DNA of 52,958 nucleotides from a virus (taxonomy: Duplodnaviria > Heunggongvirae > Uroviricota > Caudoviricetes): the IMG/VR virus record IMGVR_UViG_3300041409_000458; one strand, given 5' to 3'. The translations under genes and the position numbers were made by a program. Shown here piece after piece: positions 2,290-13,977 of this stretch (position 1 is its first letter; each line of letters begins with the position of its first letter). The notes beneath the pieces are model-generated. The model was not told the DNA's origin. It did not search any database and was given only the letters and a program-made list of their open reading frames with translations.

Positions 2290-3498
2290 ATGAAAAGAGT
2301 AGAGAAATGTATAAATGAAGATTGCATACCTACACCTTCCGGATGTGTTAAATGGAATGGTGGAGATATACCCTTTTTAGGCATATGTGAAGGGGATTGC
2401 TTAAATGCCCTTATGATTGAGCTTGTTGAAGAGTTAAAGAAGATTGCAGGGAAAGATTTGTCTACATTTGACATTAACTCCCTTCTTGCCATCTGTAAGA
2501 AGAAGGCACCTGAGGAAATTACAATAACTTCCATTCTTACACTCTTGAGAGATAATCAATTATGTCTTAAGGAATTTGCAGATGAACTTGAAGCTCAGCT
2601 TCAAAAGTTGTTTGAAAATAAGAATGTTCAGGTTAACTTACAGTGTTACAAGGGATTCAATGGAATAGGTCTTAGTATAACAAGAAGTCAATTGGACCAA
2701 CTTATTGTGGATGTTTTATGTAATCACAAAGCTGATTTAGATAGCATCGACTCAACTTTCCTTAGGTTACAGGAAGCAATTAATGAAGCAAGGAGAAGTC
2801 TTAGAATAGAAGAAGTACAGGTAGCAACATGTATTAATCTGGAATCTTTACCTTTATCAGTGCAGATTCAGAATACCTCTAAAGAGCTATGTGACTACCT
2901 GTTATCTATCGGAACTCCTGCAGATATAGTTGCTGCACTGGCAAATACTCCAACAGATTTAAACGCTGAATTTGGAGCAATTTCAGGATGGAACAGTTCT
3001 CCAACATATTGGTCAGAGTTTTATAGTAATACGTTATTAGAAGTTCAGAATTTACGTGAACGTCTTGGACAAATAGAAGATGTTTGTTGTGCTGTTACTT
3101 GTGATGATGTATTCATAGGCTTTACAGCTCTTATGAATGAGGATGGAACAGGAGTTATCCTAAGATTTACCAAAGGTGCAGGAATGGTAATGCCAAGTGG
3201 ATTCGAAGATTGTGGGTCAACTGGTACTATCACTGATTCCTCAGGAAATACGCAAGATTTCGATGTTGCTATTTCAGTAGGTGGAACAGCTGAAATTCCT
3301 CTTGAGGGATTACAACCAACTGGAGAATTAAACGTGAATATATCTGCCAAAATCTGTAATACAGATAAAGGTATTGAATGTCACAAATGTGTAAGCCAGA
3401 CAGTAACTCAAACAGAATGTGACTTCTGTGTACTGACAGCAAGCGGAAATGTAACTATAACCTACAGGATGTGTAGTGGAATATCAATATTAAACTAA
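2290..3498 (+). CDS. Cys-rich putative virion structural protein (paralog A2)
   Basis: 402 aa; paralog of 563..1783; stop/start overlap (TAATG) with the next gene. Confidence 0.8.
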   Translation: MKRVEKCINEDCIPTPSGCVKWNGGDIPFLGICEGDCLNALMIELVEELKKIAGKDLSTFDINSLLAICKKKAPEEITITSILTLLRDNQLCLKEFADELEAQLQKLFENKNVQVNLQCYKGFNGIGLSITRSQLDQLIVDVLCNHKADLDSIDSTFLRLQEAINEARRSLRIEEVQVATCINLESLPLSVQIQNTSKELCDYLLSIGTPADIVAALANTPTDLNAEFGAISGWNSSPTYWSEFYSNTLLEVQNLRERLGQIEDVCCAVTCDDVFIGFTALMNEDGTGVILRFTKGAGMVMPSGFEDCGSTGTITDSSGNTQDFDVAISVGGTAEIPLEGLQPTGELNVNISAKICNTDKGIECHKCVSQTVTQTECDFCVLTASGNVTITYRMCSGISILN

Positions 3499-4268
3499 TG
3501 CCAGAAAATTGCATATATAAAACGATAGATTTAGTGGCAGGAGAGAAGTTCGTCTTACCTCCGGGAGCTGAAGTATTATACGTATCAGATAGTGGGGCTG
3601 TTGAGTCCAGCTGTAATACTGAATTTGAAGAGAAGCCTTTACTTTGTTACTACATGCAATGGGCAATAAATGTAGATGTTGAAGGAATTAAGACTGTATG
3701 GAATCCATTTCTTCCACCTCCGGGCAATCTACCAATAGTTATCACTCTTCCTGAGATAAATAATGCTTGGGACCCGGATGATGATGAAACTGATGGAGCT
3801 ATTATTGTAACAAATATTGGTGCTGCAGGACAGGTAATACCAGCAGGTATGTCATGTCAGGATTTCCCTAGTATAGAATCAGCACTGGCATCCAGCTCAA
3901 TTAATGGATTGGTAACCAATAGAAGATTTAATAGTGAAACTCGTTATGATGATATAGAATCATCTGCAGATATAAGTTTCATGGGAAATTATGGTGATGC
4001 TGGTTATATTCTTTATGGTTTTTGGTTTAAAGCCATAGAGGAAATTGGAAATACTGTATATGTAGAGATACAGGGAAATTCAGGTAATACTGGAACTCCT
4101 ACTAGATATTACGCTCAGTTGATGGATTGTGCAGATTATCCAGTAACATCAGAGATACCAACAAGTGGAAGTGGAGGAACAAGTAGAGGTCCCGATGTAT
4201 CAACTACAACTACCACAACATTTGACTTAAGTCCTTTTGCAACCACGACAACAACAACTATACCTTAA
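3498..4268 (+). CDS. Putative structural protein (paralog B2) with C-terminal Thr-rich tail
   Basis: 256 aa; N-terminal similarity to 1786..2280; TTTTTFDLSPFATTTTTT tail. Confidence 0.75.
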   Translation: MPENCIYKTIDLVAGEKFVLPPGAEVLYVSDSGAVESSCNTEFEEKPLLCYYMQWAINVDVEGIKTVWNPFLPPPGNLPIVITLPEINNAWDPDDDETDGAIIVTNIGAAGQVIPAGMSCQDFPSIESALASSSINGLVTNRRFNSETRYDDIESSADISFMGNYGDAGYILYGFWFKAIEEIGNTVYVEIQGNSGNTGTPTRYYAQLMDCADYPVTSEIPTSGSGGTSRGPDVSTTTTTTFDLSPFATTTTTTIP

Positions 4269-5445: not shown

Positions 5446-5886
5446 ATGGAAATATGGAAAGATATAATAGATTTTGAAGGTCGTTATCAAGTGAGTAATC
5501 TAGGAAGACTAAAAAGTCTGCAGGGAAATTTTCCCTCTAAACGAAAAGAGAAAATATTAAAATTATCTTTAAAGAATGGATATCCTAAAACTTTGCTATG
5601 GAAAGATAGTAAAGCTACAACAGCTCGTGTACATAGAGTAGTTGCATTTGCATTCCTAGATAATCCTTATAATAAACCCAATATAAATCACAAAGATGGA
5701 AATAGAGCAAATAATGTCGTTGAAAATCTTGAATGGTGTACTCAAAAAGAAAATATTCATCATTCAAGAAATATAACAAAAAATGGGTCAGTAATATCAT
5801 TACAAAAATTAACAGTATTGTATGAAGAGAATATTGACTTAGAACTTTCAGATTTTATCAGAAAAATAATTCCTCATTTTAACTAA
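5446..5886 (+). CDS. NUMOD4-HNH homing endonuclease
   Basis: NUMOD4 signature EIWKDIIDFEGRYQVSNLGRLKSL plus HNH_3-type VHRVVAFAF...INHKDGNRANNVVENLEWCTQKEN. Confidence 0.92.
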   Translation: MEIWKDIIDFEGRYQVSNLGRLKSLQGNFPSKRKEKILKLSLKNGYPKTLLWKDSKATTARVHRVVAFAFLDNPYNKPNINHKDGNRANNVVENLEWCTQKENIHHSRNITKNGSVISLQKLTVLYEENIDLELSDFIRKIIPHFN

Positions 5887-5891
5887 AATAT

Positions 5892-5993
5892 ATGAAACAA
5901 TCAAAAACAGACATATTGAATAAACTCATAAAAGAGTTAATCAAAGAAAACAAAAGACTAACCGAATATATTTTACTCCAAAAGAAAAAATAA
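5892..5993 (+). CDS. Possible 33-aa coiled-coil peptide
   Basis: ATG-started ORF MKQSKTDILNKLIKELIKENKRLTEYILLQKKK fills the gap between the HNH gene and the next promoter. Confidence 0.4.
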   Translation: MKQSKTDILNKLIKELIKENKRLTEYILLQKKK

Positions 5994-5994
5994 A

Positions 5995-6026
5995 TTTGGT
6001 AAATACAAATAATTGTTGTATATTTG
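5995..6026 (+). promoter_or_regulatory. Bacteroidota sigma-A-type promoter for leader 1 and tRNA block 1
   Basis: TTTG(5995-5998)-N20-TATATTTG(6019-6026). Confidence 0.8.
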
Positions 6027-6030
6027 CTTT

Positions 6031-6171
6031 ATGATACTTGATACAAACATATATGGAGGATGTGGCTGTGGGAAACCAAAGCCTAAGAAAGGTTTACGCC
6101 AGTGGCATACGCCAACCTGTACACAATGTCCGTTTGGATGTAGTGGGGGTCTCTGTATACGTACTAGTTAA
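6031..6171 (+). CDS. Putative attenuator leader peptide 1 (46 aa, MILDTNIYGGCGCGKPKPKKGLRQWHTPTCTQCPFGCSGGLCIRTS)
   Basis: Translated by hand. Codons 6097-6135 (RQWHTPTCTQCPF) match all nine tRNAs of the downstream block; the 3' end overlaps the antiterminator strand. Confidence 0.75.
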   Translation: MILDTNIYGGCGCGKPKPKKGLRQWHTPTCTQCPFGCSGGLCIRTS

Positions 6172-6222
6172 AATTCGTACAGTTCTATACAAAAGACCCT
6201 CTAGGAAACTAGGGGGTTTTTA
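6145..6222 (+). terminator. Attenuator 1: alternative antiterminator and intrinsic terminator
   Basis: Terminator AGACCCTCTAG-GAAA-CTAGGGGGTTTTT (6195-6222). GGGGGTCTCTGTATA (6145-6159) can pair instead with TATACAAAAGACCCTC (6186-6201). Confidence 0.8.
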
Positions 6223-6226
6223 ATTT

Positions 6227-6299
6227 CGAGATGTTGGCTAATTGGTAAGCCACTTGCTTTGGGAGCAAGAAGATGCAGGTTCGACCCTTGTCATCTCGA
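6227..6299 (+). tRNA. trnP: tRNA-Pro(TGG)
   Basis: Cloverleaf: CGAGATG/CATCTCG acceptor, CTTGC-ttTGGga-GCAAG anticodon arm, TTCGA T-loop. Confidence 0.93.
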
Positions 6300-6305
6300 C
6301 ATAAT

Positions 6306-6379
6306 GCTTCTTATGCAGATATGGTGCTGCACCTCACTTGTAATGAGGATTAGAGAGTTTTCGAGTAACTCAAGAAGCT
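6306..6379 (+). tRNA. trnT: tRNA-Thr(TGT)
   Basis: GCTTCTT/AAGAAGC acceptor; CCTCA-ctTGTaa-TGAGG; T-arm GAGTT-ttcgagt-AACTC. Confidence 0.9.
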
Positions 6380-6407
6380 CTAAACATAAAAGCCGAAGGG
6401 TAAATAT

Positions 6408-6821
6408 ATGAATACAGATAAAAAATCTGGGCAGCTAGGTATGCCACATGGTACAGCAAATGCAAGATTGCGTAAAGCTATTATTTTCAAACTTCTAAAA
6501 GATGCAAAGTTAAACTTTTGTTTTCAATGCTCTGCAGAAATTGATAAGATTGAGACTTTATCTATTGAGCACAAAATTCCTTACTTAGACTCGCATGACC
6601 CTAAAAAATTGTTCTTTGATTTGGATAATATTGCATTTTCTCATTTAAAGTGTAATATAGATGCAAGAAGGATACCTGAGAAAATAGTGGATAAGGATGA
6701 TTTTAGAGTTAAACATGGTAGGTCTACTTATGAAAGAAGAGGATGCAGATGTGATATTTGTAAGGAAGACAAGAGAATACATAATAGTAAAAGATTTAAT
6801 AATGGTCGTATGGCTGAGTGA
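6408..6821 (+). CDS. HNH endonuclease with C-terminal Cys-rich (CRCDIC) zinc-binding element
   Basis: CFQC...SIEHKIP...DNIAFSHLKCN; stop codon lies inside the 5' end of tRNA-Cys. Confidence 0.85.
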   Translation: MNTDKKSGQLGMPHGTANARLRKAIIFKLLKDAKLNFCFQCSAEIDKIETLSIEHKIPYLDSHDPKKLFFDLDNIAFSHLKCNIDARRIPEKIVDKDDFRVKHGRSTYERRGCRCDICKEDKRIHNSKRFNNGRMAE

Positions 6822-6878
6822 ACAAAGGCACACGTCTGCAAAACGTTACAATCGTCAGTTTGAATCTGACTACGACCT
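6804..6878 (+). tRNA. trnC: tRNA-Cys(GCA)
   Basis: GGTCGTA/TACGACC acceptor; CACGT-ctGCAaa-ACGTT; T-arm GTCAG-tttgaat-CTGAC. Confidence 0.9.
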
Positions 6879-6886
6879 CAAGGTTT

Positions 6887-6946
6887 CCGGAATGAAGAAT
6901 GCCACTTGTTGAGAAGTGATGGTCAGTCCATCAGTGAAAAATCCGG
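6887..6946 (+). ncRNA. Candidate structured RNA (three-way junction), unclassified
   Basis: CCGGA/TCCGG closing stem enclosing the CACTT/AAGTG and ATGG/CCAT hairpins; sits between two tRNAs. Confidence 0.4.
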
Positions 6947-6952
6947 GTTTAT

Positions 6953-7024
6953 GGTGATGTAGCTCATCGGTAGAGCGAAGCCCTGAAGAGGCTTGCGTGG
7001 GGAGTTCGATTCTCCCTTTCACCA
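6953..7024 (+). tRNA. trnF: tRNA-Phe(GAA)
   Basis: AAGCC-ctGAAga-GGCTT; GGGAG-ttcgatt-CTCCC; acceptor has one T-T mismatch. Confidence 0.9.
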
Positions 7025-7030
7025 CATAAC

Positions 7031-7140
7031 AGCTCTTGGTCCGTGGGTGTTGAAAAACGTGATAACGGACCTCCAAAGTAGTAGTACAGCACTCAAAGAC
7101 GTACATTCACTGGATAGCCTCAGCCATAAATCGAGGCAAC
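7031..7140 (+). ncRNA. Candidate structured RNA (three hairpins, possible kissing loops), unclassified
   Basis: GGTCCGT/ACGGACC, TCCA..GTAC/GTAC..TGGA and GCCTC/GAGGC stems; loop GGGTGTT is complementary to loop AGCACTC. Confidence 0.5.
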
Positions 7141-7142
7141 AC

Positions 7143-7215
7143 ACGGGTGTAGCTCAGCTGGTAGAGCTTTGGTCTCCAAAACCAAGAGTCAGGGGTTCGA
7201 GTCCTCTCATCCGTG
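7143..7215 (+). tRNA. trnW: tRNA-Trp(CCA)
   Basis: ACGGGTG/CATCCGT; TTGGT-ctCCAaa-ACCAA; canonical D and T arms. Confidence 0.94.
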
Positions 7216-7220
7216 CATAT

Positions 7221-7291
7221 TGCTCCATGGTGTAATGGTAACATCAGACTCTTTGACAGTCAAGTTATAGGTTCGAGTCCTATTGGAGTAA
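7221..7291 (+). tRNA. trnQ: tRNA-Gln(TTG)
   Basis: TGCTCCA/TGGAGTA; AGACT-ctTTGac-AGTCA; ATAGG-ttcgagt-CCTAT. Confidence 0.92.
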
Positions 7292-7298
7292 CATATAT

Positions 7299-7369
7299 TG
7301 CGATATTGTGTAACGGTAGCACACGGGTCTCTGAAGCCCTTAGTTGGAGTTCGAATCTCTGTATCGCAA
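7299..7369 (+). tRNA. trnQ: tRNA-Gln(CTG)
   Basis: TGCGATA/TATCGCA; CGGGT-ctCTGaa-GCCCT; TGGAG-ttcgaat-CTCTG. Confidence 0.92.
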
Positions 7370-7371
7370 CT

Positions 7372-7447
7372 GTGGTATTAGCTTAGCTGGTTAAAGTATC
7401 TGATTGTGATTCAGAGGACACGGATTCGAATTCCGTATATCACCCCA
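7372..7447 (+). tRNA. trnH: tRNA-His(GTG), CCA encoded
   Basis: GTGGTAT/ATATCAC; TCTGA-ttGTGat-TCAGA; C73 discriminator followed by CCA. Confidence 0.93.
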
Positions 7448-7448
7448 T

Positions 7449-7522
7449 GCAGAATTAGTTTAATGGAAAAACACTTCGCTACGAACGAAGAGATATGTAG
7501 AGTTCGAATCTCACATTCTGCT
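7449..7522 (+). tRNA. trnR: tRNA-Arg(ACG)
   Basis: GCAGAAT/ATTCTGC; CTTCG-ctACGaa-CGAAG; T-stem has a bulged A. Confidence 0.88.
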
Positions 7523-7532
7523 CAAAAATAAA

Positions 7533-7564
7533 TTTGGTAGATAGGAATTAATTTCGTATATTTG
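7533..7564 (+). promoter_or_regulatory. Bacteroidota sigma-A-type promoter for leader 2 and tRNA block 2
   Basis: TTTG(7533)-N20-TATATTTG(7557-7564). Confidence 0.8.
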
Positions 7565-7582
7565 TATTCTAAAGCATAGAAC

Positions 7583-7705
7583 ATGATAACAGGATTAATA
7601 ATCGGTGGAATTGTGGGATTCGTAATTGGAGCACTTGTTTTCCGTAACAATGCTAAACAGGGAGAAAAAATTATAGATAAACTTAAAAAGACAGAAAGCA
7701 AATAA
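7583..7705 (+). CDS. 40-aa single-pass membrane peptide (MITGLIIGGIVGFVIGALVFRNNAKQGEKIIDKLKKTESK)
   Basis: Hydrophobic Gly-rich N-terminal helix and basic tail; TAATG overlap with leader 2. Confidence 0.7.
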   Translation: MITGLIIGGIVGFVIGALVFRNNAKQGEKIIDKLKKTESK

Positions 7706-7788
7706 TGTACAACTTAAATATGATAGTGGATAGAATGATTGGGGCGAACGAGAAATCGGCTCCGGGATTCCTATTGGCTGTCATGTAA
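7705..7788 (+). CDS. Putative attenuator leader peptide 2 (27 aa, MYNLNMIVDRMIGANEKSAPGFLLAVM)
   Basis: Starts in a TAATG overlap. Codons 7717-7755 (NMIVDRMIGANEK) cover all ten amino acids of tRNA block 2; the next codons form the antiterminator strand. Confidence 0.75.
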   Translation: MYNLNMIVDRMIGANEKSAPGFLLAVM

Positions 7789-7844
7789 TAAAAGATATTA
7801 CCACCAAAAAGAGTCCCGGAGCCCACAAAGCTTCGGGATTTTTT
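7758..7844 (+). terminator. Attenuator 2: alternative antiterminator and intrinsic terminator
   Basis: GGCTCCGGGATTC (7758-7770) pairs over 13 bp with GAGTCCCGGAGCC (7811-7823); this excludes the terminator TCCCGGAGC-ccacaaa-GCTTCGGGA-TTTTTT (7814-7844). Confidence 0.85.
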
Positions 7845-7851
7845 ATTAAAT

Positions 7852-7924
7852 ACCGTCGGAGCTTATGTGGACAAGCTGCACTCTTTTAAAGTGAGGACAA
7901 AGGGTTCGAATCCCTTGGGCGGTA
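7852..7924 (+). tRNA. trnK: tRNA-Lys(TTT)
   Basis: GCACT-ctTTTaa-AGTGA; AAGGG-ttcgaat-CCCTT; G-G mismatch at acceptor pair 7. Confidence 0.87.
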
Positions 7925-7927
7925 CAA

Positions 7928-8000
7928 GCTTCTATAGCTCAATAGGTAGAGTAATGAGCTCTTAACTCATGGGTTTTCGGTTCGAGTCCGAATGGAAGCA
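7928..8000 (+). tRNA. trnK: tRNA-Lys(CTT)
   Basis: GCTTCTA/TGGAAGC; ATGAG-ctCTTaa-CTCAT. Confidence 0.93.
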
Positions 8001-8016
8001 CAAAAGTTCTTAAAAA

Positions 8017-8048
8017 TTTGGTAGATTAAGAGTTTTTTCGTATATTTG
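8017..8048 (+). promoter_or_regulatory. Bacteroidota-type promoter upstream of HNH gene
   Basis: TTTG(8017)-N20-TATATTTG(8041-8048); ATG 4 nt later. Confidence 0.75.
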
Positions 8049-8052
8049 TTCT

Positions 8053-8400
8053 ATGAAGAATCCAACAAAAGAACAAACAAAGGAGTGGAATAGAACATAC
8101 TATCTTAAAAACAAAGAGAAAAGGAGAGCACAGTATAACAGAACCAGAAAAGAAATAGCTGAATGGTTCAGAGAATACAAGAAAACTCTCAGTTGTAAAA
8201 TCTGTGGTTTTGCTCATCCTACAGCCTTATCGTTCCATCATAGGAAAGGTGAGAAAAAATTAGGAGAGGTCTCTGTGATGGCATGGGATGGAGCAAGAAA
8301 GAAATTAGAGAATGAGATTGCAAAATGTGATGTATTATGTCATAATTGTCATGCCATACATCATTATGATGAGAGAAATAAAGATGCCTCTTTAGCTTAG
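8053..8400 (+). CDS. HNH endonuclease
   Basis: CKICG...ALSFHH...EIAKCDVLCHNCHAIHH; stop codon lies inside the 5' end of tRNA-Val. Confidence 0.9.
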   Translation: MKNPTKEQTKEWNRTYYLKNKEKRRAQYNRTRKEIAEWFREYKKTLSCKICGFAHPTALSFHHRKGEKKLGEVSVMAWDGARKKLENEIAKCDVLCHNCHAIHHYDERNKDASLA

Positions 8401-8460
8401 TTGGTTTAAAGCGTCTGCCTTACAAGCAGAAGACCATCCGTTCGAATCGGATAAGAGGTA
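8386..8460 (+). tRNA. trnV: tRNA-Val(TAC)
   Basis: GCCTCTT/AAGAGGT; TCTGC-ctTACaa-GCAGA. Confidence 0.93.
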
Positions 8461-8465
8461 CAGAT

Positions 8466-8539
8466 GGAGCCATCGTTTAATGGATTAGGACCTTTGTTTC
8501 CTAAACAAAGATGTGTCAGTTCGAGTCTGACTGGCTCTA
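8466..8539 (+). tRNA. trnR: tRNA-Arg(CCT)
   Basis: GGAGCCA/TGGCTCT; TTTGT-ttCCTaa-ACAAA. Confidence 0.93.
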
Positions 8540-8546
8540 CAAATAT

Positions 8547-8619
8547 GCACCCGTCGTTCAATGGATTAGGACAACTGCCTTCTAAGCAGTTTATAGCAGT
8601 TCGAATCTGCTCAGGTGTA
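8547..8619 (+). tRNA. trnR: tRNA-Arg(TCT)
   Basis: GCACCCG/CAGGTGT (one mismatch); ACTGC-ctTCTaa-GCAGT. Confidence 0.9.
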
Positions 8620-8662
8620 CAAGGTCAGTTAATGTTTCTGCGTGGAGTTAAAAAACATATTC

Positions 8663-8736
8663 GTCTGAGAAGCTTAAGTGGTATAAGCTACTGCCTGTTA
8701 AGCAGAAGATAGGAGGTTCGAGCCCTCTCTTGGACG
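8663..8736 (+). tRNA. trnN: tRNA-Asn(GTT)
   Basis: GTCTGAG/CTTGGAC, G discriminator; ACTGC-ctGTTaa-GCAGA. Confidence 0.88.
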
Positions 8737-8744
8737 CAATTATA

Positions 8745-8820
8745 CGCAGGGTAGGGAAGTGGTCATATCCTTCAAGGCTCATAACCTTCGAGAACGCTGG
8801 TTCGAATCCAGCCCCTGCAT
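8745..8820 (+). tRNA. trnfM: tRNA-Met(CAT), initiator-like
   Basis: C1-A72 mismatch (CGCAGGG/CCCTGCA) typical of fMet tRNA; ctCATaa loop; only two G-C pairs adjoin the anticodon loop. Confidence 0.82.
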
Positions 8821-8826
8821 CTAAAT

Positions 8827-8900
8827 TGGGTATTAGAATAGTGGTCTAATTCACTACTCTCATAAGGTAGCATTCACCAGTTCGAATCTGGTATACCCAA
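8827..8900 (+). tRNA. trnM: tRNA(CAT): elongator Met or lysidine-modified Ile2
   Basis: TGGGTAT/ATACCCA; CTACT-ctCATaa-GGTAG; Met versus Ile2 cannot be resolved by eye. Confidence 0.85.
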
Positions 8901-8918
8901 CAATTGTTCTAAAATATA

Positions 8919-8950
8919 TTTGGAATTGTGAGAAATATTTGGTATATTTG
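8919..8950 (+). promoter_or_regulatory. Bacteroidota-type promoter upstream of HTH-HNH and YkuK genes
   Basis: TTTG(8919)-N20-TATATTTG(8943-8950). Confidence 0.75.
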
Positions 8951-8967
8951 TATTAAATATTCGAACA

Positions 8968-9558
8968 ATGAAATTAGATAGGGATGAAGTATATAAACTT
9001 TTAGATGAAGGGAAGAAACCAGTAGAAGTTGCAAGAATCTTAGGTTGTGTAAGATCTGTTATATCTTACTATAAATCTCAAAGAAATTCACCTAAAAGAA
9101 AAGGAAACAATATACCTTTAACTATAAAACAAAAGGGAAAAATTAATGAACTTTATATTGAAGGAAAAGCTTTTAATGAGATAAGAGAAATAACAGGCTT
9201 TTCACTTCAAACAATTAGAAAATATCTTATAGTTCCAAAAAGATTAAAACAAAAGAAAAGAAGAACAATTTATTTTCTTAAATGGAGACTTCGTAAGAAA
9301 GCAATTCTTGTTGATTATAAAGGTGGAAAGTGTGAAGATTGTGGATATGATGAATGTATAGAAGCTCTACATTTTCATCATCTTAATCCTAAAGAAAAAG
9401 AGTTTAATGTTTGTGGAAAGTCAGTATCTATTGAAAAACTAAAAAAGGAAGCAGATAAATGTGTACTTTTGTGTGCTAATTGTCACATTAAGAGACATAA
9501 TTGTAAAACCTGTACAGAAGCCTTAGAAGAAGGTAAAAAATTTAGAGATAGAGAATGA
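8968..9558 (+). CDS. HNH endonuclease with two N-terminal HTH-like segments
   Basis: KPVEVARILGCVRSVISYY and AFNEIREITGFSLQTIRKY helices; CEDCGY...ALHFHH...KCVLLCANCHIKRH. Confidence 0.9.
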   Translation: MKLDRDEVYKLLDEGKKPVEVARILGCVRSVISYYKSQRNSPKRKGNNIPLTIKQKGKINELYIEGKAFNEIREITGFSLQTIRKYLIVPKRLKQKKRRTIYFLKWRLRKKAILVDYKGGKCEDCGYDECIEALHFHHLNPKEKEFNVCGKSVSIEKLKKEADKCVLLCANCHIKRHNCKTCTEALEEGKKFRDRE

Positions 9559-10031
9559 CAAAATATTTCAGAAAAAAGGATGGTGAGTTAGTCAACATAG
9601 TTGAACACACTTTAGAGCAGATTCAGCAGAATCCGAATGTCAAGATATACATTGGAACGGACAGTCAAGACGAAGGTCCATGCAGTGAATATGCAACTTG
9701 TATAGTATACAGATATGGCAGAAACGGAGCACACTTCATCTACTCAAGAGAGTCAGTTCCAAGGATTTGGGATATGTTCACTCGTCTGTACACAGAAGGT
9801 ACACGTACCATTGAAGTTGCAGAATTGATAAGAGCAGAAATTCTTTCTATAAATTTTGAAGCACTTGAGTTCGATTACGCTGATGTTAAGAAGACTCTTT
9901 CCACTCGTGTAGTGTCAGCTTTGAGAGGGTGGGTAAAAGGAATGGGTTTGAATGCTTCTTTCAAAGGTGGAGAGAAAATAGCAACAAAGTCTGCTGACCA
10001 CGTATGTAGACACAAAGAAATGTATAAATAA
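9555..10031 (+). CDS. RNase H-like YkuK (DUF458) family protein
   Basis: VKIYIGTDSQ...YATCIVYRYGRNGAH...RLYTE...EVAE...K...ATKSADH pattern matches the YkuK family as I recall it. Confidence 0.8.
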   Translation: MTKYFRKKDGELVNIVEHTLEQIQQNPNVKIYIGTDSQDEGPCSEYATCIVYRYGRNGAHFIYSRESVPRIWDMFTRLYTEGTRTIEVAELIRAEILSINFEALEFDYADVKKTLSTRVVSALRGWVKGMGLNASFKGGEKIATKSADHVCRHKEMYK

Positions 10032-10035
10032 ACAT

Positions 10036-10083
10036 GGCGAGTTGAAAGGGAATCCACAGTGGGGACACTGCCCCTCGCCTCCA
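10036..10083 (+). ncRNA. Candidate 48-nt structured RNA ending in T-CCA
   Basis: GGCGAG/CTCGCC, GGG/CCC and CAGTG-GGGA-CACTG stacked helices with two 6-nt 5' bulges. Confidence 0.45.
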
Positions 10084-10084
10084 C

Positions 10085-10157
10085 GCAGTAGTAGCTCATC
10101 TGGTAGAGCACTATCCTTCCAAGTTAGGGGCGGCAGGTTCGAGTCCTGTCTACTGCA
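10085..10157 (+). tRNA. trnG: tRNA-Gly(TCC)
   Basis: GCAGTAG/CTACTGC; ctTCCaa loop; T-T mismatch in the anticodon stem. Confidence 0.9.
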
Positions 10158-10162
10158 CAATT

Positions 10163-10234
10163 GCAGGTGTAGCACAACGGTTAGTGCATCGGCTTGCCAA
10201 GTCGAGGATAAGAGTTCGATTCTCTTTATCTGCT
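10163..10234 (+). tRNA. trnG: tRNA-Gly(GCC)
   Basis: GCAGGTG/TATCTGC; TCGGC-ttGCCaa-GTCGA; U discriminator. Confidence 0.93.
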
Positions 10235-10239
10235 CTTAA

Positions 10240-10313
10240 CATGCGTTCGACAAGTGGTCTAAGTCGTCATCCTTTCAAGGTGATATTCACGGGTTCAAAT
10301 CCCGTACGCATGA
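10240..10313 (+). tRNA. trnE: tRNA-Glu(TTC)
   Basis: CATGCGT/ACGCATG; TCATC-ctTTCaa-GGTGA. Confidence 0.92.
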
Positions 10314-10314
10314 C

Positions 10315-10430
10315 AATGTAGTAGCTAATGCTGATATAGTTATTCGAAGGTCAGAGGATTTTCCAGCATTTCCAATCTGACACTAGCCAGAGATGTGATG
10401 GGCACTTCGACAATGACTACTACATTACCA
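10315..10430 (+). ncRNA. Candidate ~116-nt structured RNA ending in A-CCA, unclassified
   Basis: 10-bp terminal stem AATGTAGTAG/CTACTACATT, internal TCGAAG/CTTCGA and GTCAGA/TCTGAC stems; flanked directly by tRNAs. Confidence 0.55.
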
Positions 10431-10503
10431 CGAGGTATGGTTGAATGGTTACAATGCCGGATTGTCAATCCGTGCGGTACGGGTTCGAATCCCGTTATCT
10501 CGG
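10431..10503 (+). tRNA. trnD: tRNA-Asp(GTC)
   Basis: CGAGGTA/TATCTCG, G discriminator; CCGGA-ttGTCaa-TCCGT. Confidence 0.92.
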
Positions 10504-10508
10504 CAAAT

Positions 10509-10582
10509 GCATCTATAGCTCAACTGGTCGGAGCAGGACGCTTATATCGTCAAGGTTTTCAGTTCGAATCTGAATAGATGTA
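10509..10582 (+). tRNA. trnI: tRNA-Ile(TAT)
   Basis: GCATCTA/TAGATGT; GGACG-ctTATat-CGTCA; UAU anticodon is rare in bacteria. Confidence 0.88.
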
Positions 10583-10583
10583 C

Positions 10584-10886
10584 ATGAAAAGCAAAGATTT
10601 TGCAAGAACAAGAACAAGAAATAGAAACTTTGTTAGGGACTATTTATCTAAGCATCCTTGCACTGATTGTGGGAACAATAACATTGTTGTATTGGACTTC
10701 GATCATGTGAAAGGAGAAAAGAAAGCAAATATCTCCAAGATGGTCTCTAATGGAACTTCTTTAGTTTCTCTCTTGAGGGAAATAGAGAAATGTGAAGTTA
10801 GATGTGCCAATTGTCACAGAATTGTTACACATCAGAGAAGATTGCAGGAAAGACCTAAAGAAGGAATTGATTATTTTGAATATTAA
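10584..10886 (+). CDS. HNH endonuclease between the two tRNA-Ile genes
   Basis: CTDCG...LDFDHV...EIEKCEVRCANCHRIVT; ATG at 10584 preferred because 10578 lies inside the tRNA. Confidence 0.88.
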   Translation: MKSKDFARTRTRNRNFVRDYLSKHPCTDCGNNNIVVLDFDHVKGEKKANISKMVSNGTSLVSLLREIEKCEVRCANCHRIVTHQRRLQERPKEGIDYFEY

Positions 10887-10887
10887 T

Positions 10888-10960
10888 GCAGGTATAGCTC
10901 AGTTGGTAGAGCAACGTCCTGATACGACGTAGGTCCAAGGCTCGAATCCTTGTATCTGCA
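10888..10960 (+). tRNA. trnI: tRNA-Ile(GAT)
   Basis: GCAGGTA/TATCTGC; ACGTC-ctGATac-GACGT; T-loop CTCGAAT (C instead of T54). Confidence 0.9.
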
Positions 10961-11022
10961 CAAGAAATAACCTCTGGTATAGAAGCACACCATTGCGTGA
11001 TTGGTTAAGTTATTTCGTCCAT

Positions 11023-11095
11023 GGGGGTGAAGCACAAGTGGACGTGCAACAGCTTTGCAAGCTGAAGGTTGAGGGTTCGAAGCCCTTCATCTCCA
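11023..11095 (+). tRNA. trnA: tRNA-Ala(TGC)
   Basis: GGGGGTG/CATCTCC with the G3-U70 Ala identity pair; ttTGCaa loop. Confidence 0.93.
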
Positions 11096-11146
11096 CAATT
11101 GTAGAAAAAATACCACATTATTGTAGAAGAAATACAACATTAAAAA

Positions 11147-11178
11147 TTTGGTTTTTTCTAAAATATTTTTTATATTGT
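11147..11178 (+). promoter_or_regulatory. Bacteroidota-type promoter (degenerate -7 element)
   Basis: TTTG(11147)-N20-TATATTGT. Confidence 0.6.
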
Positions 11179-11197
11179 ACTTATAAAACATTTAATT

Positions 11198-11383
11198 ATG
11201 TCAATACTTACAATTTTAGTCGTACTGGTAGTAGCAGGAGTTGCTTTATACTTAATCAACAGGTTCATACCTATGGATGGTAAAGTGAAGACAATTCTTA
11301 ATTGGGTTGTTATAGGTGCTTTAGTCCTTTGGTTACTTAAAGGGTTAGGTATCTTATCATTTCTAAGTAATGTACATGTGTAA
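11198..11383 (+). CDS. Small two-helix membrane protein (Thivi_2564-like)
   Basis: 61 aa; ILVVLVVAGVALYLINRFIPMDGKVKTILNWVV pattern. Confidence 0.75.
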   Translation: MSILTILVVLVVAGVALYLINRFIPMDGKVKTILNWVVIGALVLWLLKGLGILSFLSNVHV

Positions 11384-11394
11384 AATATAGTACA

Positions 11395-11715
11395 ATGGCA
11401 TTCATAAACAAGACAATTGTAAACATCTATGTATCTCCTGATATGAAGGTACTGGATATTATTAACTCTAAACTTGATAAAATCATGGCAGAACAGACAG
11501 AATTAGCAGCTCAGCTGGAAGCATTAAGCACTCAGCTTGACAAGGTTGCAGGTGAAATCATGGCTAAAGTAGATGCTCTTGAAGCAGCCTTTGATGCAGC
11601 CGATGACGTAACACCAGAAGTTCAAGCAGCCTTTGATGCTCTTAAAGCAAAAGTTCAGGTACTGGATGACCTAAATCCAGACACCCCTGAGACAACTGAA
11701 GCTCCTGAAGCTTAA
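11395..11715 (+). CDS. Acidic Ala-rich coiled-coil protein
   Basis: 106 aa with heptad-like ELAAQLEALSTQLDKVAGEI...; followed by a terminator. Confidence 0.75.
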   Translation: MAFINKTIVNIYVSPDMKVLDIINSKLDKIMAEQTELAAQLEALSTQLDKVAGEIMAKVDALEAAFDAADDVTPEVQAAFDALKAKVQVLDDLNPDTPETTEAPEA

Positions 11716-11720
11716 ATTTT

Positions 11721-11746
11721 AACCCCAGTTTTCACTGGGGTTTTTT
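11721..11746 (+). terminator. Rho-independent terminator
   Basis: AACCCCAG-ttttca-CTGGGGTT followed by TTTT. Confidence 0.85.
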
Positions 11747-11761
11747 CATTTTAAAAATTAA

Positions 11762-11793
11762 TTTGGTTTTCAGCAAAAAAGTCCGTACCTTTG
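11762..11793 (+). promoter_or_regulatory. Bacteroidota-type promoter
   Basis: TTTG(11762)-N20-TACCTTTG(11786-11793). Confidence 0.72.
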
Positions 11794-11883
11794 AGTTGTT
11801 ATTTTGTATTTGCATCCGGATTATGTCCGAGACCAGTATAATGCTGGGAAGATGTTGGTACTTAAAAGAAGTAACGCAAATAT

Positions 11884-12678
11884 ATGTTCACATCAACAGT
11901 AGCTCCCACCACGGGAGAGGCATTTATTGCCGTAAAGAAAAACAGGGTAAGGTCATATCCAACAAACCTAGCCAACATTAACAACAGTGTTTATCTCTCT
12001 GACAAACAAGAGTTTGAGATTGAGCTTAACAACCCTTCCACATCCACAAAACTTGCCAAAATCTCCATTAATGGTAAGCAAATTTCATCATCAGGTATAG
12101 TTTTAAAGCCGGGACAGAGGGCTTATATCGAGAGATATATTGATACTCCTCGAAAGTTCCAGTTTGAAACCTATGTAGTAGACAACAATCCATCAGTCAC
12201 AGCTGCAATTCAGCAAAATGGTCTGATAAAGGTATCTTTCTATGATGAACATGTTCCACCAGCACCCGTTTATTTTGACTGGAATTCTATGGTAGGTTCT
12301 TCTGCTCAGAATGTAAATTATCTGAATCAGAGGGACTCAAACATACGTTCCATGGATTTTATGCATGATGGTGCTGCAACCATGTCTATGTTCTCCTCAA
12401 GAGTAGGAGATAATGCAGCATTTGACCGTGTAAAGAAGTCAATCCCTACACAAAAGGAAACAGGTAGAATTGAACAAGGAGATGTCTCTAACCAGACATT
12501 CACTAACTATTCAGGAAGCTTCAATAGCTGGAGTACAAATACAGTGAAAATTAAGTTACTTCCTTTCTCTGAAAAACCTCTAGAGGTAAATGAGATATCT
12601 CAGTATTGTACAGAATGTGGGACTAAGAACAAAAGTGGTAAATACAAGTTCTGTCCAACCTGTGGAAACAAGTTCTAA
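11884..12678 (+). CDS. Hypothetical protein with beta-rich N-terminal domain and C-terminal zinc ribbon
   Basis: 264 aa; CTECG...KFCPTCG at the C-terminus. Confidence 0.8.
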   Translation: MFTSTVAPTTGEAFIAVKKNRVRSYPTNLANINNSVYLSDKQEFEIELNNPSTSTKLAKISINGKQISSSGIVLKPGQRAYIERYIDTPRKFQFETYVVDNNPSVTAAIQQNGLIKVSFYDEHVPPAPVYFDWNSMVGSSAQNVNYLNQRDSNIRSMDFMHDGAATMSMFSSRVGDNAAFDRVKKSIPTQKETGRIEQGDVSNQTFTNYSGSFNSWSTNTVKIKLLPFSEKPLEVNEISQYCTECGTKNKSGKYKFCPTCGNKF

Positions 12679-12684
12679 AATAAA

Positions 12685-12716
12685 TTTGGTTATTTCAAAA
12701 TACTTTCGTATATTTG
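12685..12716 (+). promoter_or_regulatory. Bacteroidota sigma-A-type promoter for leader 3 and tRNA block 3
   Basis: TTTG(12685)-N20-TATATTTG(12709-12716). Confidence 0.8.
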
Positions 12717-12758
12717 TATTCCAATCAGGGTTTGACCAAGTAGGCAACCTAAAAACTG

Positions 12759-13115
12759 ATGGATAAACATATGAAAAGTCAAATTAAAGTAGATTTCACC
12801 GATAGAGGTGAAGGAAAAGGTTTAGAGCCAGTTATTGCTATTAAGTTAATAGACAGTGATGATGTAAGAGATGGTCTTTTAAAGACATTTTTTCAATCTT
12901 TGGGAGGAGAGAGTTCTTGGTTATCAGTTTCCTTTGACCACCACATAATAAATGGTGAAAGTGACAAGACAACCTATATTAGAGTTTTTCCGATTCAATC
13001 ACACGAATTAGCTGAAACTGCAGAAAGAATAGATAGCAGGATATCAGGCAGAATAGGTTCTACAGGTCCTAATAACTGTAATCCAATAACAAATTCAACA
13101 GGTTACAAATTATAA
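12759..13115 (+). CDS. Hypothetical protein, translationally coupled to leader 3
   Basis: 118-aa ORF; TAATG overlap at 13113-13117. Confidence 0.7.
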   Translation: MDKHMKSQIKVDFTDRGEGKGLEPVIAIKLIDSDDVRDGLLKTFFQSLGGESSWLSVSFDHHIINGESDKTTYIRVFPIQSHELAETAERIDSRISGRIGSTGPNNCNPITNSTGYKL

Positions 13116-13186
13116 TGAAAACAATAACATCATATTATTCCAGTTTATCACTCTTGATTAAAAGTCGAGCTGGAAGAACTATGTAA
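13115..13186 (+). CDS. Putative attenuator leader peptide 3 (23 aa, MKTITSYYSSLSLLIKSRAGRTM)
   Basis: Codons 13130-13156 (SYYSSLSLL) match the downstream Leu/Ser/Ser/Tyr tRNAs; the 3' codons form the antiterminator strand. Confidence 0.75.
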   Translation: MKTITSYYSSLSLLIKSRAGRTM

Positions 13187-13238
13187 AGAAGAAATTTCTT
13201 TTTTCACCCTCCAGCAGCAATGTTCGGAGGGTTTTTTT
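13169..13238 (+). terminator. Attenuator 3: alternative antiterminator and intrinsic terminator
   Basis: Terminator ACCCTCC-AGCA-gcaa-TGTT-c-GGAGGGT-TTTTTT (13206-13238); GCTGGA(A)G (13169-13176) can pair instead with CTCCAGC (13209-13215). Confidence 0.75.
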
Positions 13239-13242
13239 ATTT

Positions 13243-13327
13243 GGCCCTTTGGTGGAATGGTAGACACGAGGGACTTAAAATCCCTTGCTCAGAAATGGGC
13301 GTGTGGGTTCGAATCCCACCTTGGTCA
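13243..13327 (+). tRNA. trnL: tRNA-Leu(TAA), acceptor stem imperfect
   Basis: AGGGA-ctTAAaa-TCCCT, long variable arm, GTGGG-ttcgaat-CCCAC; acceptor GGCCCTT/CTTGGTC has three inner mismatches. Confidence 0.78.
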
Positions 13328-13336
13328 CAATTATAA

Positions 13337-13422
13337 GGAAGGTCCCAAAGGAGAGGTACACTGTCTTGAAAACAGCTAGGTCGGTGATGAGCCACGTAAG
13401 AGTTCGAGTCTCTTACCTTCCG
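13337..13422 (+). tRNA. trnS: tRNA-Ser(TGA)
   Basis: GGAAGGT/ACCTTCC, G discriminator; ctTGAaa loop; long variable arm. Confidence 0.88.
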
Positions 13423-13427
13423 CACAA

Positions 13428-13512
13428 GGAGAGTTGCCAGAGTGGCTATTGGAGCAGTTTGCTAAACTGTGGTCGTTTATTCGGCCCATGAGTTCGAATC
13501 TCATACTCTCCG
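13428..13512 (+). tRNA. trnS: tRNA-Ser(GCT)
   Basis: GGAGAGT/ACTCTCC; GCAGT-ttGCTaa-ACTGT; long variable arm. Confidence 0.92.
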
Positions 13513-13518
13513 CTACCT

Positions 13519-13941: not shown

Positions 13942-13945
13942 ACTA

Positions 13946-13977
13946 CTAATATACGAAGAATAATTAACAAATCCAAA
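13946..13977 (-). promoter_or_regulatory. Bacteroidota-type promoter for the minus-strand HNH gene
   Basis: Reverse complement reads TTTG-N20-TATATTAG, with ATG 4 nt downstream. Confidence 0.65.

Follow-up and report, generated by a model that had tools for sequence, protein, structure and literature searches.

The window, a stretch of 52,958 nucleotides, belongs to the genome of an uncultured crAss-like phage whose host is likely to be a member of the Bacteroidota, bacteria that do without Shine-Dalgarno initiation. Its tRNA genes fall into three blocks, among which the 20 amino acids are divided, and each block is accompanied by a matched leader. Block 2, at the center of this analysis, comprises 15 tRNAs (Lys twice, Val, Arg-CCU, Arg-UCU, Asn, Met twice, Gly twice, Glu, Asp, Ile-UAU, Ile-GAU, and Ala) that together supply ten amino acids. 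The features on which the argument draws are the following.

6031 to 6222, plus strand: sister unit of leader 1, with the leader run RQWHTPTCTQCPF at 6097-6135 and a terminator at 6192-6221.
7534 to 7564, plus strand: promoter of the Bacteroidota sigma-A type (TTGGTA N17 TATATTTG; exact motif match) for the leader 2 unit.
7583 to 7705, plus strand: 40-amino-acid ORF between promoter and leader, coding for a glycine-zipper-like peptide with a single transmembrane segment (from the ORF list).
7705 to 7788, plus strand: leader 2 ORF of 27 codons, with its ATG within TAATG and the stop codon TAA (from the ORF list).
7717 to 7755, plus strand: regulatory codon run NMIVDRMIGANEK, 13 codons.
7718 to 7751, plus strand: segment 1, the left arm of the 1:2 (anti-antiterminator) hairpin, inside the regulatory codons (minimum-energy fold).
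7756 to 7786, plus strand: segment 2, the right arm of the 1:2 hairpin, of which 7758-7770 form the 5' arm of the antiterminator (folds).
7808 to 7823, plus strand: segment 3, the 5' arm of the terminator (7808-7822) and the 3' arm of the antiterminator (7811-7823) (folds).
7830 to 7844, plus strand: segment 4, the 3' arm of the intrinsic terminator, including a U6 tract (folds).
7852 to 11096, plus strand: tRNA block 2, 15 tRNAs interleaved with HNH and RNase H-like ORFs (ARAGORN).
8018 to 8048, plus strand: internal promoter preceding the HNH ORF at 8053-8400 (exact match to the local consensus).
8920 to 8950, plus strand: internal promoter preceding the HTH/HNH ORF at 8968-9558 (exact match to the local consensus).
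11721 to 11742, plus strand: next strong intrinsic terminator downstream (terminator scan).
13115 to 13239, plus strand: sister unit of leader 3, with the leader run SYYSSLSLL at 13130-13156 and a terminator at 13206-13232 followed by a U tract.

The leader 2 ORF, the translation of which is MYNLNMIVDRMIGANEKSAPGFLLAVM, lies between the promoter and the terminator, as the leader ORF of an attenuator does. The promoter motif recurs at positions 5996, 8018, 8920, and 12686, and the promoter itself is homologous to those preceding leader 2 in three related phage contigs (L015, L016, and L096). Its -7 box conforms to TAnnTTTG, the consensus for sigma-A in Flavobacteria/Bacteroidetes (PMC9723704). 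Within the leader, the original prediction had singled out 13 consecutive codons as containing exactly the amino acid set of the block 2 tRNAs, and the ARAGORN calls, taken with the ORF translation, confirm that all ten amino acids and no others are present. Every one of the 13 codons can be read by a block 2 anticodon, and the run samples 11 of the 14 tRNA species in the block, the unsampled ones being those with the anticodons CUU (Lys), CCU (Arg), and GCC (Gly). The match extends to isoacceptors: in every genome examined, the Arg codon of leader 2 is AGA, which corresponds to the tRNA-UCU of block 2, and that of leader 1 is CGY, which corresponds to the tRNA-ACG of block 1. Some codons in the run are rare, with GTG, GGG, and GCG accounting for 0.09, 0.06, and 0.02 of synonymous use, respectively, and it may be that the requirements of the stem, rather than sensing, explain these G-ending choices. 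A control region made up entirely of regulatory and partly rare codons agrees with the sensitivity rules given by Elf and Ehrenberg in the design analysis of leader-peptide attenuators in amino acid operons (PMC1183508). Because each amino acid is represented only once or twice, the sensitivity of leader 2 to any single tRNA should be lower than that of his- or leu-type leaders.

The RNA of this unit can be folded into two structures that are mutually exclusive because both use segment 3. One is the terminator hairpin (7808-7844; -19.9 kcal/mol, with a z-score of -6.0 for the region), which ends 8 nucleotides upstream of the first tRNA gene (Lys); a simple terminator scan did not list it, though the folds show it clearly. 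Its core consists of nine G+C pairs (TCCCGGAGC/GCTTCGGGA), and the helix has the U6 tract at its end. The other is the antiterminator, in which 7758-7770 pair with 7811-7823 over 13 base pairs (duplex, -28.3 kcal/mol; hairpin 7758-7823, -32.2 kcal/mol). Shuffled upstream sequence gave duplexes of -14.4 +/- 2.8 kcal/mol, and none of 1,000 shuffles reached the observed value. The competition between a 13-bp antiterminator and a 9-bp terminator, as first proposed, is thus borne out by the folds and the shuffles, with the refinement that A/U pairs lengthen the terminator to 15 bp. A third hairpin, the anti-antiterminator formed by segments 1 and 2 (7718-7786; -28.4 kcal/mol in the minimum-energy fold), overlaps the regulatory codons. 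A similar 1:2 hairpin is predicted in L015, L016, and L096, with only 75% of the relevant cells paired on the alignment. The antiterminator helix is 100% paired in all four sequences, with compensating changes of which one is double and two are single; this covariation comes from four sequences of only two types and is not significant by itself (128 of 500 shuffles reach it).

The dependence of the fold on ribosome position was computed by scanning an in silico ribosome footprint along the leader. With the A site at codons 5 to 15, the antiterminator is the minimum-energy fold of the full transcript, and positions 17 to 25, at which segment 2, itself inside the leader ORF, is masked, bring the terminator back. 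The stall-sensitive window thereby falls on the codon run. At the end of the run, two or three codons (AAC GAG AAA) are marginal, since segment 2 is so close that a ribosome stalled there would partly mask the antiterminator. In L016, the sensitive window spans codons 6 to 16 and the run spans codons 6 to 20. The end of the leader ORF falls just past segment 2 in both types of leader 2.

The units of leaders 1 and 3 have the same layout as that of leader 2, and each matches its own tRNA block. Block 1 holds tRNAs for Pro, Thr, Cys, Phe, Trp, Gln (two), and His together with Arg-ACG, and the leader 1 run is the only one in the genome with all eight block 1 residues. Block 3 holds tRNAs for Leu, Ser-UGA-like, Ser-GCU, and Tyr-GUA-like. 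The joint positional chance of such matched leaders, as estimated from empirical counts, is about 1e-9. Of the three units, that of leader 2 has the switch that is best formed thermodynamically. In equilibrium ribosome-mask scans of leaders 1 and 3 of the window and of leader 1 of the related genome L013, the terminator was not flipped at any stall position; because the equilibrium folds of these two units keep the terminator, a switch there would have to be kinetic. A kinetic-stage scan of leader 3 gave the classical pattern; only the stage before the transcription of segment 4 was informative.

Comparison with relatives indicates what has been retained in these units. In five related phage contigs (L015, L016, L096, L100, and L104), the leader 2 run is MIADNGDVRGIEKNG, which contains all ten residues in a different order, so that the composition of the run is kept and its order is not. 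The leader 2 DNA is homologous to the 28-codon leader of L015, L016, and L096, and the ATGTAC start is shared; past the run, the relatives read the leader in another frame and the RNA helices are retained. In L016, all 15 codons of the leader 2 run fall within the ten-residue set and are readable by block 2 anticodons. The runs of the other two leaders vary as well, with QRHTWPTFTQCTT, QRTHTQWFTCPQCPCT, and HTQWFTFCPQCPCT in leader 1 and YLSYSSLSLLS and LSYYSSLLSLLS in leader 3. Moreover, a leader and its matching block occur or are missing as a pair: L013, a genome of 129.9 kb that is about 90% complete, carries blocks 1 and 3 along with leaders 1 and 3 and is devoid of both block 2 and leader 2, and in L015 block 3 and leader 3 are both missing. 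At a finer level, block 2 of L015 lacks the Val, Arg, and Asn tRNAs, yet its leader retains the corresponding codons. The relatives thus provide natural deletions, which, with the division of all 20 amino acids over three blocks that have matched leaders and with the well-formed switch of leader 2, make the window a particularly clean case.

The original prediction also coupled the leader to the 40-amino-acid membrane peptide through a TAATG overlap, which could serve to load ribosomes. The overlap itself is present, with the stop codon of the ORF overlapping the start of leader 2 at 7703-7707, but conservation of the device does not extend to the peptide. No homologue of the ORF, nor any ORF in that position, was found at the loci of the relatives, and in L015, L016, L096, L100, and L104 the homologous leader begins 25 nucleotides past the -7 promoter box with no ORF upstream. 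Searches of the peptide against Pfam and PHROG returned only subthreshold matches of the Gly-zipper and ZapG-like kinds. We regard this ORF as a lineage-specific insert between promoter and leader, as indicated by the comparison of these loci.

A further caution had been that promoter-like motifs associated with HNH genes might transcribe the distal tRNAs independently. For this genome, the caution is justified: the motifs at 8018 and 8920 are identical to the local consensus, and promoters at these sites could bypass the attenuator and render 13 of the 15 tRNAs independent of the switch. No counterparts were found in block 2 of L015 or L016, and these internal promoters therefore look like secondary insertions that came with the HNH genes. 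In every genome, a strong terminator stands between the sole upstream promoter and the tRNAs, so that expression from that promoter requires read-through; the transcript that reads through block 2 would likely end at the terminator at 11721-11742.

Taking these observations together, we propose, with a probability of roughly 0.7, that the region 7534-7844 functions as a transcription attenuator of the ribosome-mediated (leader-peptide) type and gates block 2 by sensing how fast the codons cognate to that block are decoded. Transcription would begin at the Bacteroidota-type promoter, and a ribosome would read the 27-codon leader. If it were to cross the 13 block-cognate codons quickly, it would occupy segment 2 (7756-7786) while segments 3 and 4 are being synthesized, whereupon the terminator (7808-7844) would fold and stop the polymerase 8 nucleotides short of the first tRNA. 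Slow decoding of any codon of the run would instead hold the ribosome within segment 1 and leave segment 2 free to pair with segment 3 in the 13-bp antiterminator, allowing the polymerase to enter the tRNA genes. With no ribosome on the leader, the 1:2 hairpin would sequester segment 2, and termination would prevail. Since the products of the operon would speed the reading of its leader, the circuit would place the supply of usable (charged) tRNA for these codons under direct negative feedback. The parts, their mutual exclusivity, the effect of stall position on the fold, and the conservation were computed from the sequence; the translation of the leader, the choice between termination and read-through, and the response to tRNA supply are what we infer. 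The core of the original prediction, namely, a leader-peptide attenuator, is well supported by the topology, the stall window, the sister units, the relatives, and the co-occurrence of leaders and blocks, with the regulation itself being the predicted part. The genes downstream are tRNAs and mobile HNH ORFs, not biosynthesis or synthetase genes, and so lie outside the scope of classical attenuators; we see the regulation of tRNA genes as the novelty of this system rather than as a failure of the mechanism. More broadly, we consider it fairly probable that phage tRNA arrays are homeostatically self-regulated, each block being headed by a sampler leader in which almost all the tRNA species encoded behind it are represented by a codon.

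Other explanations of the locus have to be weighed against this proposal. One, which we consider unlikely, is that the unit is a translation-coupled attenuator without codon specificity, which reports general translational capacity or acts as a timer of the infection stage, the composition of the leader following incidentally from shared ancestry and from constraints on RNA structure. Such a view would accommodate the weak single-tRNA sensitivity to be expected from one or two codons per amino acid, the pairing constraint on a run that is partly the left arm of the 1:2 hairpin, and the location of the G-ending rare codons in G+C-rich stems. Yet structure alone leaves unexplained why the three leaders hold residues of their own blocks only, why the rewritten versions in relatives stay within the set, and why the family of Arg codons tracks the Arg isoacceptor of the block. 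Set-matched runs are equally unaccounted for if the terminators act as insulators or as constitutive, leaky stops, the ORFs sense nothing, and the extent of read-through depends on a factor supplied in trans by phage or host, such as an antiterminator protein or RNA, or on processing. Antitermination by protein or RNA is common in phages (e.g., N and Q of lambda and put of HK022), three of the nine examined leader instances are located behind other ORFs, and the translation of the leaders is itself a prediction. We nonetheless judge this alternative to be rather improbable, as it also fails to explain the conserved ATG-initiated frame through the run, the coincidence of the stall-sensitive window with that run, and the end of the leader ORF directly past segment 2 in both leader 2 types.

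It is very improbable, in our estimation, that the product of the leader is a small peptide with a function of its own or that the RNA binds tRNA directly without a ribosome in the manner of a T-box. Trans-acting leader peptides do exist, peTrpL being one example (PMC7298713), but the order of residues in leader 2 is not conserved and its C-terminal part lies in different frames in the two types. As for direct tRNA binding, an Rfam search of positions 5500-14000 (E <= 1) yielded no T-box (RF00230) and no cis-regulatory family above chance, which argues against it. We give hardly any credence to chance, by which an ordinary terminator of the 40-amino-acid gene would happen to be followed by tRNA genes and the leader ORF would be coincidental. 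An independent-residue model does predict about three runs per genome of at least 13 residues drawn from the ten-residue set; however, given such a run, the probability that 13 within-set draws cover all ten residues is 0.0064. Across the six reading frames of the 146.7-kb genome, just two runs contain all ten, one inside the gene for a 573-amino-acid protein and the other that of leader 2, the sole instance in a short ORF. Chance is also at odds with the failure of all the shuffles to match the antiterminator and with the two further units in the window that match their own blocks; and since the unit is kept in relatives without the 40-amino-acid gene, the terminator is not that gene's.

A distant blastn search of positions 5800-11300 against GenBank phages turned up no relative, its matches being confined to fragments of tRNA and HNH sequence, and a search with the 264-amino-acid neighboring protein led to eight distant loci, all without tRNAs. 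Exact-pattern scans of IMG/VR for leader 2, leader 3, and the leader 1 terminator returned only contigs already found and chance matches. Of 30 matches in a metagenome scan, 3 were true (L096, L100, and L104) and 27 were chance occurrences in G+C-rich DNA, and a scan of prokaryote genomes gave chance matches only, in Streptomyces and similar genomes. Leaders of this kind are absent from L073, a different and G+C-richer phage with 31 tRNAs, and from Bacteroides phage DAC17, and hence the device is not general to crAss-like or tRNA-rich phages. In a full-text search of the literature, we found no published account of attenuation for tRNA genes or phage tRNA arrays.

Several roles have been proposed for phage tRNAs, including compensation for codon usage, substitution for host tRNAs that have been degraded, and evasion of defenses that cleave tRNAs. 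If the attenuator proposed here operates as described, tRNA supply would be a regulated quantity for the phage, which would gauge how much usable tRNA the infected cell contains and turn on only the tRNA set that is in shortage. Depletion through host shut-off or anticodon-nuclease defenses would then be sensed, and the leaders would provide a read-out of the tRNAs that become limiting during infection. It would also be the first attenuation system in which the regulated product is the very molecule read by the sensor, would broaden the range of classical attenuation to include RNA products and a leader for ten amino acids, and might furnish a compact, natural sensor part for tRNA availability.

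The closest functional parallels are with the attenuators of enterobacterial amino acid operons, such as trpL, hisL, leuL, and the multivalent ilvGMEDA (Ile/Leu/Val) and thr (Thr/Ile) systems. Like these attenuators, the leader 2 unit has a promoter, a short ORF of regulatory codons, alternative 1:2, 2:3, and 3:4 hairpins, and an intrinsic terminator directly ahead of the genes, and a stall in segment 1 would favor the antiterminator; as in the multivalent systems, more than one amino acid would be sensed. Unlike in the amino acid operons, leader 2 would gate tRNAs rather than enzymes, with a product that acts directly on the sensor, and it samples ten amino acids once or twice each, as opposed to runs of one to three. 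It further differs from the enterobacterial cases in being phage encoded and in probably functioning in a Bacteroidota host without Shine-Dalgarno initiation. Within the translation apparatus, pheST is controlled by the pheM leader-peptide attenuator. A leader-peptide attenuator is also found at hisS/hisZ of Bacillus (for hisS, see PMC2965389). These systems resemble leader 2 in the attenuation of a component of the translation apparatus by the cognate charged tRNA, but they control synthetase genes, respond to a single amino acid, and are cellular, and leader 2 differs on each count. T-box riboswitches share with leader 2 a terminator/antiterminator decision that reports the state of tRNA; they bind one uncharged tRNA directly, without a ribosome, via a specifier codon and the T-box sequence, and, to our knowledge, they do not control tRNA genes.

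Nearer to the likely host, leader-peptide attenuation has been inferred in Flavobacterium psychrophilum (PMC9723704) and would be compatible with the host machinery. The candidates in that organism have, like leader 2, TAnnTTTG promoters, no Shine-Dalgarno sequence, and short-ORF attenuators; they precede amino acid biosynthesis operons, whereas leader 2 precedes tRNAs. A phage parallel comes from Caulobacter phage phiCbK, in which a promoter-like site and an ORF (MSKTYRQFVRQIQVVRNIR...) precede an annotated terminator (51465-51502), behind which lie tRNAs for Phe, Val, Ile, Ile, Val, Gln, Gln, and Gly. The run in phiCbK, broken by Arg and Asn that are absent from its block, is a looser match than that of leader 2, and the two have the same architecture and admit the same reading in sequences that are unrelated.

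Leader unit 2 (L2), which precedes the 15 tRNA genes of block 2 (7852-11096), is best explained as a ribosome-mediated attenuator, a reading to which we give a probability of about 0.7 from the sequences of five distinct genomes. The window comes from the minus strand of a 146.7-kb IMG/VR virus record with an estimated completeness of about 76%, and its source resembles a crAss-like phage, in which three giant ORFs (4705, 1742, and 1569 aa) and a DNA polymerase exonuclease subunit are encoded. ARAGORN recovered 26 tRNAs in three groups, two tRNA-like genes complete block 3 to Leu, Ser, Ser, and Tyr, and the three groups combined account for all 20 amino acids. Outside the window, the genome also has an amber-suppressor-type tRNA (anticodon CUA; G000:C1:5956-6028), which leaves the reading of the window's leader ORFs unaffected because these end in TAA. 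The features are as follows.

Block 1, tRNAs for P, T, C, F, W, Q, H, and R(ACG)
Block 2, tRNAs for K, V, R(UCU, CCU), N, M, G, E, D, I, and A
Block 3, tRNAs for L, S, and Y
6031-6222, leader unit 1 (L1), run RQWHTPTCTQCPF
7583-7705, 40-aa ORF, putative membrane peptide
7703-7707, TAATG overlap of the 40-aa ORF with leader 2
7705-7788, leader ORF of L2
7718-7786, long hairpin of segments 1 and 2, -28.4 kcal/mol, its left arm being the regulatory run
7808-7844, terminator, -19.9 kcal/mol, with a 9-bp G+C core, an A/U-pair extension, and a U6 end
13115-13239, leader unit 3 (L3), run SYYSSLSLL, before Leu, Ser, and Tyr genes
6408-6821, 8053-8400, 8968-9558, and 10578-10886 (plus strand) and 13582-13941 (minus strand), five HNH-type endonuclease ORFs among the tRNAs
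13337-13421, tRNA-like Ser-UGA, anticodon loop CTTGAAA, resembling Ser-UGA of the related contig L013; weak Rfam score of 24 bits, missed by ARAGORN
About 13526-13589, tRNA-like Tyr-GUA, loop CTGTAAA; weak Rfam score of 21.5 bits, missed by ARAGORN

The L2 run at 7717-7755, NMIVDRMIGANEK, uses block-2 residues exclusively and all ten of them, the exact correspondence claimed in the original prediction, whose named elements were all found where it had placed them. A six-frame scan of the whole genome returned only one other run with all ten residues, inside the gene for a 573-aa protein; given a 13-residue run within the set, the probability of covering all ten is 0.0064. Under strict wobble, block-2 anticodons can read each of the 13 codons, and the run samples 11 of the 14 distinct anticodons (the exceptions being CUU, CCU, and GCC). 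Among synonymous codons in the phage's own genes, GTG, GGG, and GCG have shares of 0.09, 0.06, and 0.02; the stems could be an alternative cause of their choice.

The RNA of 7700-7851 (-51.3 kcal/mol) folds far better than its shuffles (z = -6.0) and has the classical four-segment topology, with an anti-antiterminator (1:2), an antiterminator (2:3), and a terminator (3:4). When the terminator 3' arm is withheld, the best fold is a 13-bp helix of 7758-7770 with 7811-7823 (duplex -28.3 kcal/mol, hairpin -32.2 kcal/mol), and none of 1000 dinucleotide shuffles of the upstream region reached the antiterminator energy (mean -14.4, sd 2.8). This helix and the terminator with the 9-bp core, predicted to compete, are both present in the folds as alternative pairings of segment 3. 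We then masked a ribosome footprint codon by codon, refolding the transcript each time. Placing the A site at any of codons 5-15 (N M I V D R M I G A N) makes the antiterminator the minimum-energy fold even of the full-length transcript; a ribosome at codons 17-25 covers segment 2 and the terminator is back, and with no ribosome the 1:2 hairpin and terminator co-form. Hence, the stall-sensitive window coincides with the codon run, except for its last two or three codons, at which a ribosome would start covering the antiterminator arm. The same scan gave the same outcome for the homologous unit of L016, a related phage contig (sensitive window, codons 6-16; run, codons 6-20).

Comparable units precede the other two blocks. 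The L1 run is the only one in the genome holding all eight block-1 residues, and every one of the nine block-1 anticodons is represented in it, as are both Gln codons. In a stage-wise fold scan of L3 before segment 4 is made, the terminator arm is free without a ribosome or with one past codon 16 and is sequestered by a ribosome stalled at codons 3-15. The antiterminators of L1 and L3 are weaker, being equalled by 53 and 27 of 1000 shuffles, respectively, and L2 is the best built of the three switches. Leader 1 is accompanied by a conserved Gly/Cys-rich mini-peptide, ..YGGCGCG(G)K(K)P.., which is fused to it in frame in the window (6031-6096), forms a separate ORF in L013 (7037-7107; ending in TAATTATG), and is located upstream of the promoter in the related contig L096 (5895-5942).

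Relatives were sought with the neighbouring exonuclease gene; the array is common to only 3 of the 75 viral loci returned, L013 (79% identity) and L015 and L016 (69%), and a metagenome scan contributed L096 and two L016-like contigs. Leader 2 of L015, L016, and L096 is MYLFYMIADNGDVRGIEKNGSGFPMSVV, whose run, MIADNGDVRGIEKNG, again holds all ten residues, with 15 of 15 codons readable. The two L2 types are homologous at the DNA level, with the middle of the run rewritten, and the GGCTCCGGG stretch is conserved as RNA and not as peptide because it is read in different frames. The antiterminator is 100% paired across both, the covariation counts being small (one double compensating change and two single ones); the terminator register of L016 differs from that of L015 and L096, its 5' arm still being common to terminator and antiterminator. 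All variants of L1 (QRHTWPTFTQCTT, QRTHTQWFTCPQCPCT, and HTQWFTFCPQCPCT) and L3 (YLSYSSLSLLS and LSYYSSLLSLLS) keep the composition and change the order. Every L1 has CGY as its Arg codon and every L2 has AGA, in agreement with the Arg isoacceptor of the block. Blocks and leaders are also absent together: L013, a genome of 129.9 kb that is about 90% complete, has just 13 tRNAs, with blocks 1 and 3 and their leaders, and neither block 2 nor L2 was found in it, while L015 lacks both block 3 and L3. One mismatch is that L015 is without the block-2 Val, Arg, and Asn tRNAs, yet its leader retains their codons. The block-1 Trp tRNA of L015 and L016 is an odd tRNA-like gene (L016:4319-4402; L015:5563-5646; anticodon loop CTCCAAA, aberrant D and T arms) called by neither ARAGORN nor Rfam; a normal tRNA-Trp occupies this site in the window and in L096.

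Coupling to a membrane peptide had also been proposed. The TAATG overlap is present, but the 40-aa ORF has no homologue in the relatives' loci, where the L2 ATG follows the -7 box by 25 nt with no intervening ORF, and family searches gave only sub-threshold glycine-zipper matches. Just three of nine leader instances (window L2 and L3 and L013 L1) have an upstream ORF ending in TAATG or TAATTATG, and such ORFs are therefore optional; they may aid ribosome delivery but do not belong to the conserved device. A caveat concerns transcription from within the block. The motif TTGG.A-N17-TATATTTG has five near-perfect copies (5996, 7534, 8018, 8920, and 12686), all of them within the tRNA region, and these agree with the Bacteroidota sigma-A pattern, in which TTTG lies at -33 and a TAnnTTTG box at -7 (PMC9723704). 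Those at 8018 and 8920 match the L2 promoter in quality, each ahead of an HNH-type ORF (two of the five such ORFs), so that the suspicion of internal promoters is borne out in the window: 13 of the 15 block-2 tRNAs could be transcribed from them, bypassing the attenuator. In L015 and L016, no further such promoter occurs from the L2 promoter through block 2, and the eight tRNAs of L013 block 1 follow L1 without interruption; one operon per leader therefore looks like the ancestral state, and the promoter-carrying HNH genes look like later intrusions in the window genome. HNH ORF positions vary among relatives, as expected for mobile homing genes. In L016, a tRNA-Pro-like 5' fragment (3239-3275) directly follows the L1 terminator, succeeded by an HNH ORF (3330-3812) and a complete tRNA-Pro (3797), which looks like an endonuclease-insertion footprint; a similar truncated tRNA-Leu precedes an HNH gene in L013 (8604-8650). 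Block 2 also contains an RNase H-like ORF (9555-10031; PF04308, E = 2e-16; phrog_11311), which could be a tRNA-processing or repair factor; in L015 and L016, the corresponding position holds an ORF of about 154 aa. No terminator lies at 7524-7533, between the last block-1 tRNA (Arg, end 7523) and the L2 promoter, and block-1 read-through transcripts would therefore enter the L2 leader, which would be their second gate.

Under attenuation, the time a ribosome takes to read the block-cognate codons would race transcription of segments 3 and 4. Since the operon's products would speed leader reading, the loop would be direct negative feedback on tRNA supply. Such leaders, as classical genetics of the his attenuator established, respond to the level of charged tRNA and not to free amino acid. 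Elf and Ehrenberg analysed a race of this kind, and their rules favour both a control region wholly of regulatory codons and the choice of infrequent ones (PMC1183508); L2 has both, the latter in GTG, GGG, and GCG. Leader-peptide attenuators at amino-acid operons of Flavobacteria (PMC9723704) suggest that the likely host machinery is compatible. Candidate triggers of shortage are A+T-rich phage codon demand, host tRNA degradation, or tRNA-targeting defence.

The proposed mechanism is classical attenuation, already known, and is new in acting on tRNA genes, in its ten-residue "sampler" leader, and in being set in a phage. In full-text literature searches, no description of tRNA genes or phage tRNA arrays under attenuation control came up, and nothing similar was found in two other tRNA-bearing phages, DAC17 and L073. 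The Caulobacter phage phiCbK (JX100813) offers a likeness: an ORF at 51341-51439 (MSKTYRQFVRQIQVVRNIR...) is followed by an annotated terminator (51465-51502) and a tRNA block for Phe, Val, Ile, Ile, Val, Gln, Gln, and Gly. This ORF, rich in residues of its own block (F, V, I, and Q), is the third of the short ORFs that, with annotated rho-independent terminators, directly precede tRNA sub-blocks there (48081-48166, 49540-49769, and 51341-51502). The match is looser than that in the window because Arg and Asn interrupt the run, but phiCbK, a cultured phage, may be a tractable model of the same control logic.
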